The notes under the pieces are model-generated. The model made no database searches and was not told the DNA's origin. It saw only the letters and a program-made list of their open reading frames with translations. Source: Trichoplax sp. H2 (lineage: Eukaryota). Taken from it: a stretch of DNA of 64,000 bases. Each line of letters starts with the position of its first letter. Within the stretch, counting starts at the first letter, position 1. The translations under genes were made by a program, and so were the position numbers. The stretch covers positions 682,001 through 746,000 of the forward strand of contig NOWV01000015.1 in the NCBI GenBank assembly GCA_003344405.1, given 5' to 3'. Shown one piece after another: positions 3,801 through 61,100 of this stretch.

Positions 3801-5141
3801 CTGGAGAAAAGGAGTGACTCAGAACAAAGTTCTTTTCGCTATGGTGGCTTTGTAGGCGATATTCATGTAATACAGGAATACATGGTGTGCCATGCCAGAT
3901 ATGATATCTATCGATTTTATTTAATTGCTTTTATCTATATTTAGCGCCTCATAGTAAGCACTGATGAATACGAAGAATCAACGTTAAAGAATTCTGATGC
4001 GTATGTGATACGCCCATTTATGCCATCAGATGAAGTAATCACATTTGGCTTGACCGAAACTTATAGATCTTGTATCACTTATACTGTTAAATTCATTGTA
4101 TTGTTTAGGAGACTCTGTATGATTTATGTCTGAAATCATGCATTGAAAATTCCAATGGCGATGAAATTTACAAAAGAGAACCAAGGATTATTGGCGATAG
4201 GTAATAAATCGAATCTAGAATGAGGCGCTTATTATGAGTAGAATACAGTGGTATTCAATAATATTGGTATCTGTTTGAACATTGTAAAATTATAGGGATC
4301 TAGGAGCATATATTTACTTACATCCAGAGTATATTTACGTACTGGAAGATGACCGAGATAAAATCTGTGGCTATCTATGCGGTGCATTAGATTCTAAACA
4401 GTTCTATGAGCGATATGAATCGGAGTGGTTAACGCAAGTATGAGCAAGAAGATGATAAAAAATTAAAGCAGGTATAATCTAATATTAATCTGTCTTGAAA
4501 CTAGATCCGTGATCGTCACCCCCAACCTGAAAATGATATTGCGTCCTGGACTCCAGAAGAGGTCTGCTCATTACTCATTAGTATGCCTGTAATATCTTTG
4601 TTATCGAACTTCCTGATTGGTATTCCAAATATCCTGATCTACTATAGATTGTAGCGAATTCTTTTTATAATTTTACGCCACCAACGGATGTGTCTGTATT
4701 GTATCTGTCACATTTGGAAGCTAGATTTGATTCATCTGTTCCGGTCAGTTTAGGGCTTATAAAAATGTGTTTAATGTTAATTCAACTTAAGTTACTAATT
4801 CTACAAAATTTATATTAATTCCTATTTATAACATCCCCATTCTATAAAACCTGACAGTTTTGCTTTATCATAACACTATAGGAAAAGGTCATAAAAAGAA
4901 TAATTCGATTTATACTTGAACAATTGAAAGCTAAAGGTTAGTTTATGTACATTTGCATCCTCTTAATGTAAACTAACCATTGCTTGATTTCTTAATGGAA
5001 GGGTCATATGGAGCATCAATGCTAATCGATTCATGGAGGACTAATCTCCGCAGAATATTTACGTCAATGGGTTTTGTAGACCTGCAAGAGTACAGTTGGA
5101 TGTCTGAACAAAAGTGCATGATTGCTATTAAATTAATGTAG
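822..5141 (+). CDS. OGA: O-GlcNAcase (GH84 catalytic domain, stalk, C-terminal pseudo-HAT domain); about 15 exons seen, 5'-most coding exon not found in the window
   Basis: Spliced translation gives [13 protein letters not shown] (822-873), [14 protein letters not shown] (catalytic Asp-Asp), [63 protein letters not shown] and a GNAT-like tail ([24 protein letters not shown]) ending at TAG 5139-5141. All introns are GT-AG. Confidence 0.95.
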
Positions 5142-8310: not shown

Positions 8311-9210
8311 TCTGAACATAGACAGTTTGCTGTGCATTATTGGTTATAGCAAAGTTCTTTGCTAACGTTGTACGGAATGTTATCTGGTATCCACTAGTTA
8401 CACACGGTTACCATAGTGTTGCATGATACGCGCTTTTAATTGGTGCTACAATATCAACTGTATTGTACGATTTGCGCACTAGTATAGCAAGTGTTGATGT
8501 TCACCTGCCAGCACCTACCTACCTCAATGGCGGTAGTTGGAGTAAATAAATACAGTAGCATGCATTTACCCTAGCCAATGGATTTTTTCTAGTGGTCTAC
8601 TGCCTACCCTATCATAGTATGCAACACGATTACGTGATTTCTAATAATAAACAAGTCTAATCAATGTGTATGGTTAAAAATAGTAGACTGCATGCAGGTA
8701 TCCAGGCTAATCCAGCTGTGCTAGTTCGACTACCATGGTCAGGGGGCCCCCCATTCATTAACAGTAAGTCGCGGGCATGCCTTTGGTTTATTGTAATTAC
8801 TTGAAGATGGGCTAGAATTACAAGTCATACATGATAGCTCCAACTTGCATTAGCAACGACAAAAATCAACCCATTGAATTGTTAATTAGCCTGAGTTGGA
8901 GAGCAACAGACTAAAGAGTTTAGCGTCCATTCTCGGTTAACCATATTGCTGCTAGTGAAAGGCAACAGCGAGTCTCGACCGTGGTAGGGCATGGTAGAAG
9001 TCATACTGGCCACGATATCACGGCGGTCTCTATATATTCACTAGAGCATTGTAGTCATACATCAGTACCATCACTTCAATATTGACACACAACTAGCAGT
9101 CAGTGAGTCACGCCTCGATTGCCTAGGCATGGCATAACAACCGTGGGTAAAAGAGGCTATTTCTAGTACGCACGCGCACCACCCATCCAAGTTCAAGCAG
9201 TAGAATGACC

Positions 9211-12200
9211 ATGGACGATCGCCAGCAGGTAAAAATGGAGGAAAATGATTTGAGTTCAAGATTGGAATAACATGCAAAAAATTGTCAATTTTATGACTAT
9301 ATTATATATTAAAGATGATTAAAATCAATGGAAGCATCCTTATAGTGTAAAATCAAAGTAAAATTTAATTTTATTTGACCTTATTAGATTCTTCGAATTG
9401 AGGCCTTGTGCAAAGATTTATACGAATCGACTGATGCCACGCAAAGAAGTCAAGCACAAGAAGCCTTGGTAGCCATTTCCAATTCTGATAATTGCTTAAC
9501 AGAATGCCAATTTCTGTTAGAACATAGTACAGTAAGTCATTCTATAAGGCATAAATTTATCATAATGGATTCATGATATGGATTGAATCGCCATCGATTG
9601 CCTATCAGTTTGGTTTTACTATTTTTATTAAAAAAAAAAACTATCAAGTTATTCTGCACAGTCTACTGTACGTTGACTAAGACCACTCGCACAGTCATCA
9701 AAACGTTCAGTTATAACTAGGACTGTAAATCCTATACACAGATAGCATTCCCTTTTTACGAGCGAGAAATAACACCTAGTTCAACATTGCAAAGACATGG
9801 TAAAGAAAATGATGGCGTCGAAATGATGCTATAGTGGAAAAGAAAACGCCATGAAGATAATAATGAACAGGCGTCAAGTAGGGTCGATTCTTGCAGTAAT
9901 ACTGGTATCATGCTATATGATGACGACGTAATCGCGTTTGAATAGCCCTAGAATCGCTCTTTTCCTCCCTCCATCGACGAGCAGATGTTTTCGATCTTAC
10001 CATTAAAATCATCATTTTACTCCATTTGACCATGGAAAATAACAAAATGGATCATCCTTATCTATCGTAGGATGATATTAATGATAATATCAACGCATTC
10101 CATGACCAAATCGAGCGTCCATTTTTACTTCATTTTATGATGGTTGTTATTTGCATGCTGCGACGAGAATCAATATTGATGACGCTGATGTAATCAACTG
10201 TTGTTTAGCGTCGACTGATTGGCATCAAATAATTAATCGATGGTGATGACTATTTTCAATTAATGGAGTTTATTTTTTTCTCTCTCTCTTCATTAGTCTC
10301 CCTATGCACAAATGTTTGCCTCGCAATCATTAATCAAGCTAATCTCACGAACGACATCATCGTTACCCTTAAATCATCGATTAGAAATGCGTAAGGATAA
10401 ACAACATAGATTCAATGGATATATCAACACTACAATTCCTTTCTTATCCTATCTGCAGATGCTTTAAATACGTGTTGTTATTATTTTTGACTATTCTAGG
10501 TAATTACTTACTGAACTATCTAGCTACACGACTCAAATTGACCAATTTTGTAGCCCAAGCTTTAATGAAGGTATGATATTAGAATAACCTCTCTTACAAT
10601 GAACAATGTTTATCATCAACGATAAAAATGAAATAACCCTGATAATACTATTTTGAAGCAGTATGTAATTTGTTTTTTTATCATCAACATCATCTAGTTA
10701 TTAGCAAGAATTACCAAGTATAGTTGGTTTGAAATGCAAAAAGAACAATATGTCTTTCAAACTGTTGTAAATGATGTGATGAATAAATTCTTGCAAGGAA
10801 ATTCTATCGATACGTGCGTTATTGGCATTCAGATTTTAACTAATTTAATTATAGAAATGAATCAGGTAAGAGTGGACTAGTTGCAACTTCACACGTTTAT
10901 AATTATGTAGACCATAACGTCTACCATTGCCTTGAATTGGTTTTTTATAGGTTGCTGATCCATCCAGATCGTTTGCCAAACAACGAAAGGTAACATACAT
11001 AAACAAAAACGATTTAAGTATTTTTTATGTCAAACAAGCCCCATTTTAAATCAGTACAAAAATGCATATTATCTTATCGAAAACATTTAGGTTGCAGCGT
11101 CCTTTCGTGATTCAGTACTATTAGATATGTTTAATGTCGCATGCTCATTCCTCAAACAGGTAACTTAATAATATTATATGAATTGAAAATATTATTATCA
11201 ATAATATAAAATACTCTTTATGGGTAAACAACCTTGCACTAAACTAATATTTTTTGCGTTCATAACTTTATCATATCCAATTTTAGTTAACAAAGAAACC
11301 AGTAGATCAAAATAACCAAGAACAAGTAAGTCTTATCATTTTTCGAGATAATAGTAATCAATTATGCTTGAATATGGACTTGATGTAAATTTACTGTGGT
11401 CATCACTTTTTAAAATCTCTAGGTGACCTTAGTTAGCAGTCTATTACAGCTTACTGTGCAAGTATTATCCTTCGATTTTATCGGTTCATGTATAGATGAA
11501 GCATCCGATGACGTTAGCACCGTGCAAATACCAACATCATGGAGACAAGGTAAATTCTAAGATGAATTATTAACGTCCGTCAATAATTTCTTAATGTTAA
11601 CAATAAGCATGCATCTAAAGTGATTGTTGTTCTCCTTTCTTAAACATTCTAAATTGCATTACTGTGTGCTCGTAAGAAGTATCACCATATTTCTTATAGT
11701 TTACTAACATAAAATAATAAATCTTGCTTTTTTTATAGCTTTCCTAGATGGTAGTCTACTGGATCTATTCTTCAACTTGTATGGAGTATTCAATTCATCA
11801 CTAACTGCGTTGGTAAGTCTTCTCAAATAAGTTATGTATGTGATTAAAATCTGGATAAAAATCTCCAATAGTAGATGCTCTTGTAAATATTATTGTAGCA
11901 AAATTCTTGATTGAGCTAAAATTAGTAAGCTACATTGCTTAAAATTCAATATCACTAAGAGCGGTTGTTTACTAATAGTCACTATCATGCTTGGTCCATC
12001 TGGCTTCAGTGAGACGATCTTTATTTAATAACAATGAGCGACCTATTTACCTTAATTCGCTTGTACAAGGAATTAGAAGCGTATTAGAAAAACCTCAGGT
12101 GAATATGAAGTCTATTTTGACAACATGGTACTACCAATTATAGCAAAATTGCCTAATGCCTAAGTTTTCATTACTCTAAATCTCTTACTGATAGTATCTT

Positions 12201-15200
12201 TCGGATCCAAGTTGTTATCACGAATTTTGCCGCCTATTGGCTCGATTAAAATCGAATTATCAACTCGGCGAATTAGTTAAAGTTGACAATTATAGCCTAG
12301 TTATTGATCTAATAGCCAAGTTTACGGTCACAAGTGTACAGGTCAGATATTGCACTATTAAAGAGCAATTATAAGATTGAAGTTTTTCCTTAGTAGCTTA
12401 TCAGAATTTTTCATTCTGAGCCACTGATGTAACTACCCGTTTCTTATACTTACATGGACTTGACAACATTATTAGGAGGTTTGGCAATGCGCACCAAATA
12501 GTGTCCACTATTTGTTAGGATTATGGCAACGTTTTGTTGCTTCCTTACCCTACGTCAAATCGTCATCCCCACATCATCTTAATGAATATAGTCCTCAGGT
12601 AAAAGATCCTGTTGTACTGTAATTCTCAATAGTAATTCGAATTTTACAACCTAATCTAGAGGGTATTTTATTCCATGTAGATTACCAAAGCTTACGTTAC
12701 ATCACGGCTAGAGTCTGTACAACTCGTCATTAGGTAAATTACTGTTATTGCTCATTGGATACTATCTTTACCAGTAAATGTAAAACTGTAATTGTATATT
12801 TTAACAGAGATGGCTTAGAGGATCCTATGGAAGATTATCACGTATTAGAGCAGCAACTTGAACAGGTAAATTAATTTAAAGTTATTACAATAGTTATCTA
12901 CGAGTATGCAAATTATACTCTTATAATTGTCATTTGATATTATATAGCTTTCGACTATCGCTCGTTGTGATTACGACCAAACCTGCTCGTTAGTCATGTC
13001 TCTATTCGACCAGGCGGCATCATCCTATCAGGAATGTTTACAACAGCAATCTCAAAGAAGTGATGCAAGTTTCGTAGTTTACGAAGGTAATTAAGTCCAG
13101 GAATCTATTATTTTTTAAATTTTCAGTGACTGTAGAATGGCTTTTTTAGGACAACTTGCTTGGTTGGTATGTATCATTGGGTCTGTAGTAGCTGGCAGAA
13201 CACTTTTCTATATCGCGGAGGAAAGCGATATTCTTGATGGAGAATTGATTTGCCGGTAGTTTATTAGTTTCATTCATGACCTATTGTAGTATTACGTGAA
13301 TTATATAACGTTATACCTTTTGTTTTGTTTAACAGTGTGTTACAGCTAATGAAGTTGCTAGAGGAAAGAAATCCTCAAGTAAGATAAATTGTTTTTATGT
13401 AGGGCTATATCAATATCTTGTTCTTGATTTATTACATTACCTTACTAGGTTTTAAGTGAAAAATTAGATCTCGCCATCTTGAGCTTCTTTGAACAATTTA
13501 GAAAGATTTACATTGGCGACCAAATGCAAAAAACCGCAAAGGTCTCTAAGACTCTTCGTATTGTACTAAAATTATTACTTAATTTTTTAGCATGATAGTC
13601 CGCTTAACTCACTTTGTATATCCAATATATGCTAAAAAAAGAATTACTTATGTCAAATTTATGCAGGTTTATAGCTGTATTGGCGAACGTCTGGGTCTTA
13701 AAGATGAATCAATGGTGTTAAGCATATTTATAAATAAAATGTAAGTATCCTTGCTTTTTTATAATCGTTATCTGATTTAGTATTGCTATTGAAGAAACGA
13801 GCAAGATCTATATATGATAAAAATCTTTTTCTTTTTAGCTTATCGAACCTAAAATATAAAAGTGAAAATGAATTGATTATGTTGCATACGCTGCAGCTGT
13901 TAAGTGATCTCTCGATGGGATATCCTGCAATACATACTTGATTTTTCTCAGATATGTCAATAATCCAACACTTGCTACTATTTTGCTTAACTGTTCTTAA
14001 CTACAGCAGTGTTAGAAAAATTGTCAAATTAGAGTCAATTCAATTTGTTCTAAAGAATCATACAGTAAGTTATTAATACAATTTTGGAGATGGCAAGATA
14101 AATCATATCTAGCTCATATTCGAGCACATCACGAAACGAATTGTTGTATTTATAATCCCATCAGGAACAACATTTTCCGTTTCTTGGAATTCAGCCAAAT
14201 ATTACACTTAAAAATATGAGACATAGAACCTTATTTTACACTGCTATTGGTCGTTTCTTGATGGTAGATCTAGGAGAGGACGATGAATCGTTTGTACAAT
14301 TCTTCATGCCTCTTACATGTAAGTACTGTTAATTGCTAAGGTAATTGTGATGAATTTCTTCAATTTTCTTCGACAGCATAACATCTACAAATTGAATGTC
14401 CTCTTCTTAGTAAAATTTGAACAATTCAAGAATCAAATAGCATCAACATCAGTTAATGAAGAGCAAGTCAAGGTTTTATAACTCTTATTAAATGCCATGT
14501 TGAATGCATATCACGTACTAAATGAATATATGCTCTTAATAGAGAACCATAATCGGTCTATGCCGTGACATAAGAGGCCTTGGTACAGCTTTTGTCAACA
14601 GATCATGTTACATGATGCTGTTCGATTGGTTGTATCTTTTCCATGTCCCTCAGACTACCAAATCAATAATAACCCAATTGTCATGCAATCTAATTACAGC
14701 GCATATTCGATATGTTCCTTAACTTGTTTAACAGATATCCCGCATATATGCCTGCTTTAATTCGAGCAGTGGAGTTATGGTATCATGATCCTAGTCTTAC
14801 AACCCCGGTATTAAAGTTAGTGACTGAAATAGTCCAAAATCGATCTCAAAGATTACAATTTGAAGTATCTTCTCCAAATGGTGTCCTATTATTCCGGGAA
14901 GTTAGCAAAATAATTTGTACTTATGGTAAGTTTGCTACTTTGCTAATACTCTTAATTCTTTCAACCATTTTAATTCTATTGTTTGACGTTAGGTTCCAGA
15001 GTATTGTTACTTAATGATATACCGGAAAGACAAATATACGCAATGAAATATCCTTCCTTTCACAATAATAAAATCATCATTTTACACTAAAACATTTTCA
15101 TTAGATGAAGTTATGTATTATAATCATTGCATTGAAATGTTGTATAACAAGTCACAAATAAATTATATGTTCCTTGACTATGTATAAGCTTAAAGGCATT

Positions 15201-16648
15201 TCTATTTGCTTCAGCATGTTAAAAGCAGCTTTGAGCGGGAACTATGTTAATTTTGGTATATTTAGACTTTATGGCGATGATGCATTTGACAATGTATTAG
15301 GAATGTTCCTTAGGATGTTATTATCTATACCTTCTCAGGACTTACTGGTATGATATGAAATAGCCAATGATTTATGCATTACTGTATATTGAGAATTATG
15401 ATTCTGATGCTGTTGCAAACTCACATTAAGGACTATCCTAAATTGGGGAAAGCCTATTATTCACTTATTGAAGCACTAGCACAAGATCATGCGTCTTATA
15501 TCAATAATCTGGAGCCCAATGTAAGTCATAGTCTCAAATTTGAAAATTGATAATTGTATAAATAATTATTTATTGTCAAAAATCCCATCCAAAAAATGCG
15601 CTATTACTATTGTATTGTCATAGTGTTAAGTGATTGTCCTAATTGTCCATACTTAAAATTTTAATTCTCCATAGGTCTTACTCGTAATTTTATCTACCCT
15701 TTCGCAAGGATTTGTTGCACTTGGTACGCAATTACTATAACCAGTTTTTACGTAACATATCAGTCTTTGAATCATTTTTGCTAAGCTAACAGATCTTTTC
15801 GTTTATATAGATGTCAACATTTGTACCTTCTGCTGCTCTGCATTAGACCACTTATTAACTAATTTGTTTAAAGAAATCTCTAAAACTAAAAAATCAAATA
15901 ATACATCTCAGGAGCAAAGTTCTTTACTTCGTGTATTAGAGCATAAATCAGAAGTACTTCAGCAGGTATACTATTTAGCAAAGTACTCAATTCGATTATG
16001 ACTTACCCCAACTGATACAGAAAATTTATGTTAATATCCCTTTAGGTATTAGACACTATCTTAAATATAATTATGTTTGAAGATTGTAAAAATCAGGTAG
16101 GATTGCAATCAATATTCGTATAATTAATTAAAAAAGATCTTATTTTTTGTCTCGACTACCGGTAATAAACTACGCATGATGTTAATGGCTAACACTTTTC
16201 TTTTAATAGTGGACTATGTCGAGACCTCTGTTAGGATTAATTTTGTTGAATGAAAAGGTAACGATGAGAAAAATAATTAGCTGATTCAATTGTCAAGATA
16301 TTTTAATTCGTCATCACTTTATCTTGTAGTACTTTTCCGAACTTACTGCCAACATCATTTCAAGTCAACATGTTAATAAGCAGGAAAAAATGTCTTCATG
16401 TTTTTCGAGTCTTATGGATGGAGTGGAATTTTCTTTATTTACAAAAAATAGAGAAAGGTAACTGTGCCATTGATTTATCTTGTATTAATAACAATCAAAC
16501 TAGAATAGTCTGGATTTAATTTCTAACTTCATGTGATAGATTTGCACAGAATTTATCCGCATTTCGTCGAGATGTCCATACATTACTTGGTGCGTCTATT
16601 TCGCTTCAGCCTGATAATTCTACCACTGCTAATATGATGACTTCTTAA
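9211..16648 (+). CDS. XPO7: Exportin-7 / RanBP16-17 family karyopherin, about 35 coding exons
   Basis: Exon 1 MDDRQQ (9211-9228; an in-frame ATG also at 9205), then [164 protein letters not shown] and [16 protein letters not shown]; stop TAA 16646-16648. Confidence 0.96.
13920..14000 (+). other. U12-type (minor spliceosome) intron of XPO7 with AT-AA termini
   Basis: 5' end ATATCCTG; branch-site-like TTGCTTAAC ends 9 nt before the 3' end. Only the ...TTCTTAA|C junction restores the conserved DLSMG-YSSVRK frame. Retention hits TGA. Confidence 0.8.
14632..14734 (+). other. U12-type GT-AG intron of XPO7
   Basis: 5' GTATCTTT, canonical U12 branch site TTCCTTAAC (14715-14723) ending 11 nt before the 3' end; joins FDWL-YPAYM. 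Confidence 0.85.
15048..15187 (+). other. U12-type intron of XPO7 with AT-AA termini
   Basis: Perfect 5' ATATCCTT and branch site TTCCTTGAC (15170-15178). The ...TATAA|G junction restores [12 protein letters not shown], whereas the AG one nt further on would frameshift. Confidence 0.85.
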
Positions 16649-20644: not shown

Positions 20645-22990
20645 TCAATATTTCAGGTAATCTTGTAACTTAGAGCTAAATTCTTCGTCAAATTGTGGCA
20701 TATATTCAGAGATAGTATTAATGTCCTGCCGCTTTAATCTTCCTTCATCAGCTGTTGCAGTAACAAGTTGTCTCTGTCTAGATTGGCTTCGGGTGACAAT
20801 ACCATACTACAAAAAATAGAAACTATTACGGTACATATCTGCTACTATAGCTAAAATACAGCACTGTAAGTCATACTCTATACAGTACCTTAATCATTTA
20901 ACATTTAACTATGGTGAATCAATATCTACCTGGCTTCCTACGCTCGTATTCGAAGAAACATCAGATTGTAGATTGTAGCTTAAGTCTAACTGACTTCGAC
21001 TAGTTGAAATATCTTGCGAGGATATTTCTAGACTGGCATCGGAATCATCGTATCCTCTATTATCAACATTTCTAAATGCATCTTGTAACAGTGCTCTCTG
21101 CTCTCCATCTAATTGCGATAATTGGCCATTATCTGATTCTAATCGTTTACTAGCATCATACCCCTGAGTTTGGTAAACTTCACGGACAACATGATCAACA
21201 TTATCCTGAGTTTGGTAAACTTCACGGACAACATGATCAACATTATCTCGAGTAACTATTTCTTGTTTGATCTCTGGCTGACCTAGTGTATTGTATAAAA
21301 TTATTTCGCTGAATATATTATGCTATCATACATGAATGCATAAACCATTGCTCATATTTTATACTATTAATGATAGGAATAACAACTTTAATATATGTTT
21401 GTTAATACCTTGTTTATCTTGATTTGAGGACGTTACATTGGCCGATGCATTATTATCAACATTTGTACTTGGTGGTGGCAACTGCTGAACGTTGCGCGCT
21501 GCAACAATATTTTGTCCATTCTAAGCGTTACAAAGCGTTGCATACGAAAAAAGGAAAAAGATATCCTTAATACATTACAGTACAAGCATCGCAGTCCATA
21601 CGTATTCATTGAAAAAGTTGTTTTGATAAAAATGTGCCAGTAGCTTACATTGAGAATACTTTGAACAAGTGTTCTAGCAGCCATAGTCACACCGTTTCTA
21701 CTAACATCAAGTATTGAACTATATATCTTGTCTTTGTATTGTTTGATGAGTTCATCTATCTCCTGAAAATTGAAATTCAATAAGGTTATCAACGTAAGCG
21801 GGCCATCTACTCATAAACTGTTTGTTGCCACACAAAATCTATCAAAATAAATGTAGTGCAATTCACTTGCATGTAGTCTGCTTATATAAGCTACGATTGA
21901 ATTTAAGTTCTATCTTAACAGGTAACGTGTTTATGAAGTGGCAATTACTCTATTTCGTAGTACTGGCTGCTATTACCATTATACTGTTGGACGTAGAACA
22001 TCATGAAATGTTCATTATTGTCTTACAGCTAAGTACAGTATTTATGATCTCATAAAGAGTCCTATTTAAGGATTATGAGGCGAACAAACCTCTTCATGGG
22101 CCATCAAATTAGGGTGAATGAACTTCCTATATAATATGCTCGTACCCTATACAATAGAAGAAATAAATTATATTGAATGGAAGATGTACGCCCAACTGTA
22201 TTCTTGATTACGATTCCAAGTTGAGCCTATCGTAAGAATACCAGTCGTCATGGAACGCTTACATTTGTTGCCGGTAATAGCAGCCATAAGAAAAAGAGAA
22301 TTTTGGCTTCTTGGTATAACGGAAACCACCTGAATTCAAGAATGGACAAGAATATAAAAATTTCTTTAATAGACTATCAACAGTAAATAGTAACAGCTAT
22401 AAGCCTACAACCAAATTACCAGCCAATTAAAAGATCAGCTATCGTTTCAGCCACAGTGTAAAATGCGAAACTAATCCAGTACATCATCCATTTTACCTAT
22501 GTATAACATGACAAGACTAACGTTAATACAGTACGCTGATCATTGTACTATCAATTAGCTTGACTTACATATTCACGTGGATTACGTGTCTTGACAGCTT
22601 TAAACGAGCGGTAAGCTGGATAGAGAACACCAGCTATAAGACTGATGAAAGTTGTCGAGAAAAAGAAATTGAGAAAATTGCCTTTCCAACTAACTTCATT
22701 TTTGTTTACGTCTTCAAGGCCAAATCAAGAGTTGAGACAATAGGTCGACAGTACTGTTTTCGACACTAAAGAAGCATTTCCTAGTCACTGACTATAGAGC
22801 GTTGGAAAGTACTGTGACAGCTTATAGTATATCTGTCTACTAGCGCATGACATCATATTTGACGACGACAACCGTTCAAGAAAAAAATGACTCTCAAAGG
22901 ACATTTATAAAATATAATATCAACAACGAACTAGTTGACTAATCCTAGTCCAACTTACATGATAAGCTTGGATAAAAATTGTGTAATCAT
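20645..22990 (-). CDS. REEP: Receptor expression-enhancing protein, REEP1-4 subfamily (ER-shaping, TB2/DP1/HVA22 domain), 9 exons
   Basis: Spliced MITQFLSKLIILIAGVLYPAYRSFKAVKTRNPREYVKWMMYWISFAFYTVAETIADLLIGWWFPLYQEAKILFFLWLLLPATNGTSILYRKFIHP..EEEIDELI, then a polar low-complexity C-terminal tail; stop TGA 20647-20645. Confidence 0.93.
21163..21247 (-). repeat. Perfect 42-bp in-frame tandem duplication inside a REEP exon
   Basis: CCTGAGTTTGGTAAACTTCACGGACAACATGATCAACATTAT occurs at 21163 and 21205, encoding DNVDHVVREVYQTQ twice. Confidence 0.95.
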
Positions 22991-23144
22991 AATCACATGA
23001 AACTTGCTAATTTCTTGGTTACTCTATGGAATAATATTGGGTTGGCGTAGCAAACTGATTGAAAAATTGAGTGGTAGAATAAGCCGTTAAGAAGGAAAAC
23101 TTCCTTTTCTGAAAGGTGAAGGCGCCGGCGCAGTTGATGTCGTC

Positions 23145-23270
23145 AGTACAGTACAGTACTGTACTGTACAACTATCATACAGTGCAGTACCAGTACAGTA
23201 CCATACAATGTGAAGTACTGTAGTTTACAGTGTAAGGTAGTGTACTGTACTGTACTGTACGATAGTACAA
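23145..23270. repeat. (CAGTA/TACTG)n pentamer tract with a perfect 24-bp palindrome in the REEP/THG1L divergent intergenic region
   Basis: GTACAGTACAGTACTGTACTGTAC at 23146-23169, plus further CAGTA and TACTG runs up to about 23270. Confidence 0.85.
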
Positions 23271-24143
23271 TGTCAATCCCTGTGGTCAACCCCCCCCCCA
23301 ATGGTGTTGAATGTACTGTACTCCTAGTCTCCTACTCACTTTAAAAAGGAGCTTATAGGAATGTGAGGACATTTATTGTCAATAATGAACCTTACAAACA
23401 CATTTACTAAACTGAACAGTGCCTGTAAGTATAAAACATGATAGAACAGATAGTAATAATGCTGATCTTTATTTTGACTCAAAAATCGGAAAAGAAAATA
23501 AAACGGTGACTGCAGTCGTCTGTAGTCCATGTGTTGAAATACACCCGGTGCTTCTTCATTCATAATGTAGAGTACACTACTGTACTGTATACCGCACCTA
23601 GGTGGCGCGTATTCTAGTCCGTCAAAAACGGCCGAATTTAGAATATCTGTTGGACGTTGCGTAAATTCGTCTTGCACCAGTACTAAAAGTGCGTAAATTG
23701 ACAAAATTTTTAAATATTTAATGATAGAAATTATCGGTGTGTAATAGTCAACATCTCAGTTGAGAGGGGGCAAGCAATGATCAAACAACCTTTGCTATAC
23801 AATACTCGTATGGTCTACTGTACTGTACTTGCACAAAGGTAAAGCGGCCCCATACATTTACCCCTACTGTACTGTATACTCAGAGTATAGTATACTATAT
23901 TATTTTTAGGTTCTCTTGTAGACGGTATAGCCGTTTCTGCAGTGGCCATGAATTAATAAACTAAATTCTAAATTGAAAGTTAATGGTAGCAGTAAAATCT
24001 CGAAAGCATAATAGCTGACTTTACCCGAAAAATGATACTTGTAGCCAAGTTGTAGCTACAGTATAGTAACAATATCTATTACTGAATGATAGCCTTGTAC
24101 TGTACAGTACTTCTAAATCGCCCTACTGTATTATTAGGATATC

Positions 24144-48729: not shown

Positions 48730-61100
<12,371 letters not shown>

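Follow-up and report, generated by a model that had tools for sequence, protein, structure and literature searches.

Two U12-type AT-AA introns in the exportin-7 gene of Trichoplax

The exportin-7 gene (XPO7/RanBP16) of the placozoan Trichoplax contains two minor-spliceosome (U12-type) introns that begin with AT and end with AA, and the use of both AT-AA junctions in RNA was confirmed. The gene lies in a stretch of 64,000 nucleotides (nt) from contig NOWV01000015.1 of Trichoplax sp. H2. This whole stretch, the window, is placozoan DNA with a G+C content of about 32%, and all positions below refer to it. The two introns are named intron 1 (13920-14000) and intron 2 (15048-15187). They are very probably ordinary U12-type introns of the A-type (AT-AN) class, removed constitutively, whose last base has changed from C to A. 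The direct observations are the splice signals, the junctions in the RNA contigs, the intact DNA, the errors of the public gene models, and the non-AA ends of the introns in other taxa. According to established U12 biology, both introns would depend on the U12 spliceosome, and both junctions appear to be used constitutively. The AT-AA subtype is already known; the new elements are the two instances in one gene, a third U12-type intron, and the corrected gene structure.

Splice signals and reading frame

Both introns and the gene had been named from the sequence letters in an original prediction, and this reading was accurate. The 63-amino-acid (aa) exon at 14736-14924 is 100% identical to two public Trichoplax exportin-7 models, P0001 (Trichoplax sp. 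H2 exportin-7, 818 aa) and P0002 (a Trichoplax adhaerens hypothetical protein, 1101 aa), and shares 70-81% identity with exportin-7/RanBP16 from many animals. The U12-type 5' and branch signals and the AT-AA ends are also as predicted, and the RNA contigs agree with them.

Intron 1 (plus strand, 81 nt, phase 2) starts with the 5' splice site ATATCCTG at 13920-13927. Its branch motif TTGCTTAAC is located at 13983-13991, with the branch A at 13990; the intron ends in AA at 13999-14000, and the exon begins with C. Intron 2 (plus strand, 140 nt, phase 2) starts with ATATCCTT at 15048-15055, and its branch motif TTCCTTGAC at 15170-15178 has the branch A at 15177. The last bases AA are at 15186-15187, followed by G. 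In both introns, counted back from the 3' end, the final A of the branch motif is base 11, and 10 bases follow it. The 5' motif /RTATCCTY stands directly at the exon end in introns 1 and 2, and the third U12-type intron of the gene has GTATCTTT at this place. All three introns have a TTCCTTRAC-like motif about 10-20 nt before the 3' end (10 nt in introns 1 and 2, 12 nt in the third), without a polypyrimidine tract. The 5' motif is not rare by itself: ATATCCTK was matched 15 times in the window, compared with 7.7 ± 2.8 times in shuffled sequences, which is about twofold. The 9-mers TTCCTTGAC and TTCCTTAAC, the latter from the third intron, occur only once each on both strands of the 64 kb, and each is located 10-12 nt before an exportin-7 exon start.

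The 3' end of intron 1 (13983-14002, plus strand) also shows tandem branch-like motifs, composed of TTGCTTAAC, TG, and then TTCTTAAC. The splice junction sits within this second branch-like copy, between AA and C.

The joined exons at junction 1 read DLSMG|YSSVRK. If intron 1 ended at the AC (14001), or intron 2 at the AG (15188), the frame would shift and stops would follow. To this extent the predicted rule that the frame is restored only by AA ends was right; but it was slightly too strict for intron 1, where the AG dinucleotides at 14005-06 and 14008-09 are also in frame. Their use would remove the conserved Y-S or Y-S-S. Moreover, a TA..AC cut, moved by +1, would lead to an identical protein.

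In the proposed mechanism, U11 and U6atac would recognise /ATATCCT, and U12 would pair with TTGCTTAAC or TTCCTTGAC. The second step would cut 10 nt after the branch A, where A might replace C as the partner of the 5' A. A branch-point ruler for the 3' site had been part of the original prediction. The cut indeed stays 10 nt after the branch A despite the last base A; the ruler is not new, however, since a distance constraint from the branch has been published for U12 3' sites (Turunen 2013, PMC3584512).

Junctions in RNA and DNA contigs, and the public models

The RNA and DNA runs consisted of assembled contigs, from which rare isoforms are dropped. X19 is a declared RNA-seq run. X16 is labelled 'RNA?' and contained only unspliced pieces, and it was used as DNA-like cover; stretches of the gene that it leaves uncovered were given no weight. 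For intron 2, record 14 of X19 aligned with 14735-14924 at record positions 306-495 and with 15186-15348 at record positions 550-712. The 54-56 bases between these pieces correspond to the 55-nt exon at 14993-15047. The alignment has a 2-nt AA ambiguity, with the repeated AA assigned to the right-hand piece, and there is no mismatch at G15188. The mRNA across intron 2 therefore reads ...ATGAA|GCTTAAAGG, with a skip of 140 nt and with G15188 kept. The contig pieces, given the 5' site, thus place AT first and AA last in intron 2; for intron 1 the same assignment comes from the fit of lengths and depths.

The spliced contig of X17 (record 11, 4051 nt) measures 351 nt from 10863 to 11979, 1019 nt from 12596 to 14735, and 738 nt from 14924 to 16540, and the exon model is exact for all three distances. 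Since the contig depth is flat, the bin means could be converted to covered bases. The bin 13746-13992 has 81 nt covered in both X17 and X19, which equals the exon 13839-13919, and the bin 13993-14239 has 139 nt covered in X17, which equals 64 + 75. In the bin 14981-15227, 96 nt are covered in X17; this fits the AT-AA form of intron 2, whereas a +1 cut would give 95 nt.

These numbers bear on the alternative that intron 1 is mainly cut elsewhere, either as an AT-AG intron ending at 14006 or 14009, with a protein 2-3 residues shorter, or as a TA..AC intron shifted by one base, with the same protein. All three cuts are in frame, P0001 uses the acceptor at 14006, and the RNA joints do not directly list the intron 1 junction. 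However, the 1019 nt in X17 fit only a skip of 81 nt, since the 87-nt AT-AG form would predict 1013 nt. The observed bins of 81 and 139 nt also differ from the 133 nt expected for AT-AG and the 82/138 nt expected for TA..AC, and Y-S-S is conserved in the orthologues. The TA..AC form would require a cut one base inside ATATCC, a use that is not known for U12 5' sites. A main cut at any of these positions is very improbable.

A second alternative, raised in the original prediction itself, is a 1-nt assembly or sequencing error that conceals true AT-AC or AT-AG ends. No observation spoke in its favour. The independent DNA contigs showed no indel at either intron, and the ends stay AA. The DNA-like run X2, which comes from another study and has another organism label, has one contig over 9300-15121 whose sole 1-base gap is at 9679, so that 9680-15121 is free of indels, and no base differs within intron 1. 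Two haplotype contigs of X2 cover 15092-15209 without an indel, and both keep AA|G. One haplotype is identical to the window and the other carries 4 substitutions (15122, 15139, 15153 and 15179). Unspliced contigs of X16 also span both introns with no listed differences, and the RNA contigs require exactly these exon lengths. Within what contigs are able to show, this excludes an assembly error, and an error of any origin is extremely improbable. Separately, the substitution at 15179 affects the base directly after the branch motif of intron 2.

The expectation that automated gene models would mis-annotate these exons was borne out: both public Trichoplax models (2/2), when aligned to the exon model, are wrong at both AT-AA junctions. 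P0001 leaves out the exon 13839-13919 and uses the AG at 14006 ('...INKISVRK...'). Further on it translates intron 2 until a stop codon is reached; it is truncated at 818 aa, with an exon missing. P0002 has two intron-derived stretches; intron-derived residues stand at junction 1, and the exon 14993-15047 is replaced by read-through of the preceding intron. The junction of the GT-AG U12-type intron is correct in both models. Similar failures at junction 1 were found in other animals. Among the 120 matches listed, 61 exportin-7 models bear the motif, and in 17 of these 'GYS' is replaced by 'GYP' together with 1-5 odd residues (e.g. P0068 and P0300). They are mostly fish, frog, reptile and bird entries, and GYP is the translation of GG|ATATCC, that is, of read-through at the 5' site. 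As the Trichoplax models fail exactly at the two AT-AA introns, annotation-based surveys of minor introns would miss both, and annotation-based Trichoplax intron lists inherit the two wrong models. The practical gain is a corrected structure of Trichoplax exportin-7.

Intron ends in other animals and the probable change of the last base

The intron ends of other animals were read from footprints in prokaryote-style open reading frame (ORF) calls on eukaryote contigs, which read from the intron 3' end into the exon. Because the introns are phase 2, the residue before the exon is encoded by the last two intron bases and the first exon base; T indicates AC, N or K indicates AA, R or S indicates AG, and M or I indicates AT. 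At junction 1, 72 proteins were classified: 42 were contiguous (intron-free or RNA-derived), 20 represented another exon or were partial, 7 had T, 3 had R or S (AG-like), and none had N or K. At junction 2, where 120 of 139 matches were listed, 78 were contiguous (intron-free or RNA-derived), 14 started within the exon, 14 were too short to tell, 8 had T, 5 had R (AG-like, including two short, ambiguous cases), and one had M; a recognisable AA was found in none. An AA end was thus recognised in 0 of 10 informative footprints at junction 1 and 0 of 14 at junction 2, and the idea that AA termini might be conserved across animals was not upheld.

The introns themselves are shared. At both junctions, protein-level footprints with branch-motif codons indicate that distant species have an orthologous intron there, with the same codon position and phase 2 as in Trichoplax. 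In several footprints, 'SLT' or 'PLT' (TCC/CCN TTR ACN, the branch motif) is followed by exactly 3 codons, which is the spacing found in Trichoplax. Junction 2 has 'SLTEVT|LKG', 'SLTLVT|LKG' and 'SLTAGT|LKG' against 'SLTMYK|LKG' in Trichoplax, and junction 1 has 'PLTKFT|YSS' against 'CLTVLN|YSS'. Judged by similarity, the AC cases of junction 2 are mollusc- or echinoderm-like, and those of junction 1 occur with the vertebrate-type 'KLSAVQFMLNNHT'. In vertebrate-like sequences the junction 1 intron starts with ATATCC. The ends elsewhere are AC, AG-like or AT, in contrast to AA in Trichoplax. Many lineages, such as the insect-like sequences, either have no intron at these junctions or are represented by RNA-derived contigs. 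Metagenome contigs gave 278 relatives, and 80 loci were retained; a tblastn search with the junction region revealed an intron at junction 1 or 2 in none of them. These loci are mostly intron-free or transcript contigs, and only two of them have an intron at the third junction.

The footprints at the same positions in other animals show that both introns are old. Read from these sequences, they are U12-type introns that usually end as AT-AC, with an AG-type form of junction 2 in vertebrate-like sequences. The last intron base in Trichoplax seems to have switched while the splice position was unchanged, and the direction of the switch was probably from C to A. Three U12-type introns of exportin-7 are now placed in a placozoan. 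Two of these match U12-like introns in mollusc-, echinoderm- and vertebrate-like sequences, and so add to the view of minor introns as being of great age and fixed position, with a terminal base that drifts.

Several points weigh against a simple C-to-A change in ordinary introns. The junction of intron 1 comes from length and depth arithmetic on one contig per run, and is not a directly listed junction. Assembled contigs are unable to reveal minor isoforms or splicing efficiency. The 10 nt from the branch A to the 3' end are one below the optimum of 11-13 nt quoted for human (PMC3584512), subject to the counting convention of that source. At junction 2, a K read-through (AA+G) could be hidden among the 14 uninformative short ORFs. 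Moreover, the taxa given for the footprints are guesses, based on how closely they resemble named proteins.

The original prediction had also pointed to a more canonical dinucleotide exactly 1 nt downstream of each AA end. From this it had inferred a possible rate-limiting control of the gene, and in this further explanation each AA site would have the AC or AG one base further on as a rival. Frameshifted +1 products would be destroyed by nonsense-mediated decay, and the fidelity of the minor spliceosome would set the output of exportin-7. The dinucleotides are present, and their use would change the reading frame. A review describes the choice of U12 3' sites as error-prone and U12 introns as possibly rate-limiting (PMC3584512); human A-type introns are reported to be less efficiently spliced, and the genes hosting AT-AN introns to be enriched for nucleocytoplasmic transport (PMC8280824). 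However, the +1 base is simply the first exon base, fixed by its place as the last base of a Gly codon (C) or a Lys codon (G), and a canonical dinucleotide at +1 is expected by composition in roughly 1/9 of such pairs. The AC or AG therefore consists of the last intron A and the first exon base, and is not a competing designed site. Other taxa do not share the AA ends, and since the same geometry exists with AC ends in other animals, no special design is needed. No +1 isoform was present in the contigs, a type of data that is unable to show one. Regulation by such +1 slippage is improbable, and constitutive removal of two ordinary A-type introns is strongly preferred.

AT-AA introns are a catalogued, rare subtype: human has 3 of them, mouse 4, and Arabidopsis 1 (Sheth 2006, PMC1557818); AT-AA was also described as the commonest non-canonical end among minor introns of animals and of plants (Larue & Roy 2023, PMC10639083). 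The AT-AA introns of human and mouse RASGRP4 and FLJ21106, and of human MSH3, resemble the Trichoplax introns in having the same /ATATCCT 5' site, a U12 branch near the 3' end, and A as the last base (PMC1557818). The human MSH3 intron is AT-AA, whereas its mouse counterpart is AT-AC (Sheth 2006, PMC1557818), which represents a subtype switch at a conserved intron between species, as for Trichoplax exportin-7. The Trichoplax case differs from the catalogued ones in its two introns in one gene and its placozoan host. The human karyopherin gene XPO4 has an AT-AG U12 intron (PMC1557818), which is also non-canonical and A-type but belongs to another gene and has another terminal base. The A-type AT-AN introns were reported as a functional class, enriched in nucleocytoplasmic-transport genes (de Wolf 2021, PMC8280824). 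Exportin-7 shares this class, whose CENATAC dependence is not known to extend to Trichoplax. The literature search found no AT-AA intron in XPO7, no relevant link between XPO7 and U12 splicing, and no list of Trichoplax U12 subtypes, although the supplements of the surveys may list them.

Trichoplax possesses U11, U12, U4atac and U6atac (Hertel 2009, PMC2655684), and its minor small nuclear RNAs (snRNAs) include a variant U6atac motif (Lopez 2008, PMC2396436). Both A-type introns of Trichoplax exportin-7 (2/2) have A where other phyla have C. At the frequency of AT-AA in human and other animals, by a rough estimate a few percent of A-type introns, such a pair would occur about once per several hundred genes. 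Two AA ends in one gene are improbable at human frequencies, which leaves some modest room for a frequent use of AT-AA in placozoans. This remains rather unlikely, because the case was chosen for its oddity from a very large scan. An AT-rich genome and the variant U6atac could help such frequent use. If AT-AA were common genome-wide in Trichoplax, the species would offer a natural test of 3' site choice by the minor spliceosome.

Gene structure, the third U12-type intron and other features

The coding region of exportin-7 extends over 9205-16648 (plus strand), with about 34 introns and the stop codon at 16646-16648. The N-terminus of P0001 and the ORF list place the putative ATG start codon at 9205 and the putative exons 1-2. 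From 10297 to the stop, the exon model is an open frame of 1040 aa; 15 GT-AG joints in it are among the RNA joints listed, and the other junctions were placed by frame and sequence. There are 32 introns within 10391-16539, of which 29 are plain GT-AG and only three have U12 signals. All three U12-type introns of the modelled gene are phase 2, and the exon model aligns without gaps at their junctions with the exportin-7 of Lingula, Holothuria and Liolophura. A search of the PDB with one exon found no exportin-7 chain.

The exons next to the AT-AA introns, all on the plus strand, were delimited as follows. The exon before intron 1 (13839-13919, 81 nt) is covered by the depth of X17 and X19, and it is the one skipped in P0001. 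The exon after intron 1 (14001-14064, 64 nt) continues into the next exon through a loose end of X19 at 14065. The exon before intron 2 (14993-15047, 55 nt) ends at the start of the K codon and corresponds to positions 496-551 of record 14 of X19; it is skipped in P0002. The exon after intron 2 (15188-15347, 160 nt) is placed by the exon model and the orthologue alignment.

The third U12-type intron, an addition to the original prediction, is new here. It belongs to the GT-AG subtype and is located at 14632-14734 (plus strand, 103 nt, phase 2), with the 5' splice site GTATCTTT. Its branch motif TTCCTTAAC is at 14715-14723, and 12 nt separate the branch A from the intron end; in the RNA contigs the sequence continues at 14735. 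In the two metagenome loci with a third-junction intron, L074 (about 4339-4415) and L076 (about 4359-4422), this intron shares the codon position and phase but is of the U2 type, GTAAGC..AG.

Within the gene, contigs are unspliced across most of the 768-nt second intron (9529-10296), over 9502-10326 on the plus strand (record 12 of X19, records 9-10 of X17, and records 1-3 of X16). Their depth is about 1/5 of that of the spliced contig. They could be due to retention of the intron, to a nested transcript, or to carry-over of DNA.

An Rfam scan of the window gave no match and no snRNA gene. A candidate U12-type GT-AG intron of another gene was observed on the minus strand at 51750-51899, with GTATCCTTC at 51899, TTGCTTAAC about 133 nt further, and an AG that follows the branch A by 9 nt. 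This candidate is flanked by open frames on both sides. Two other regions are probably low-complexity or repeat DNA. The first, 20909-21322 on the minus strand, is an open frame of 137 aa with an internal direct repeat, in which DNVDHVVREVYQTQ occurs twice; the second is 23087-23350, where the frames of both strands read repeated 'VQYSTVLY'-like words.

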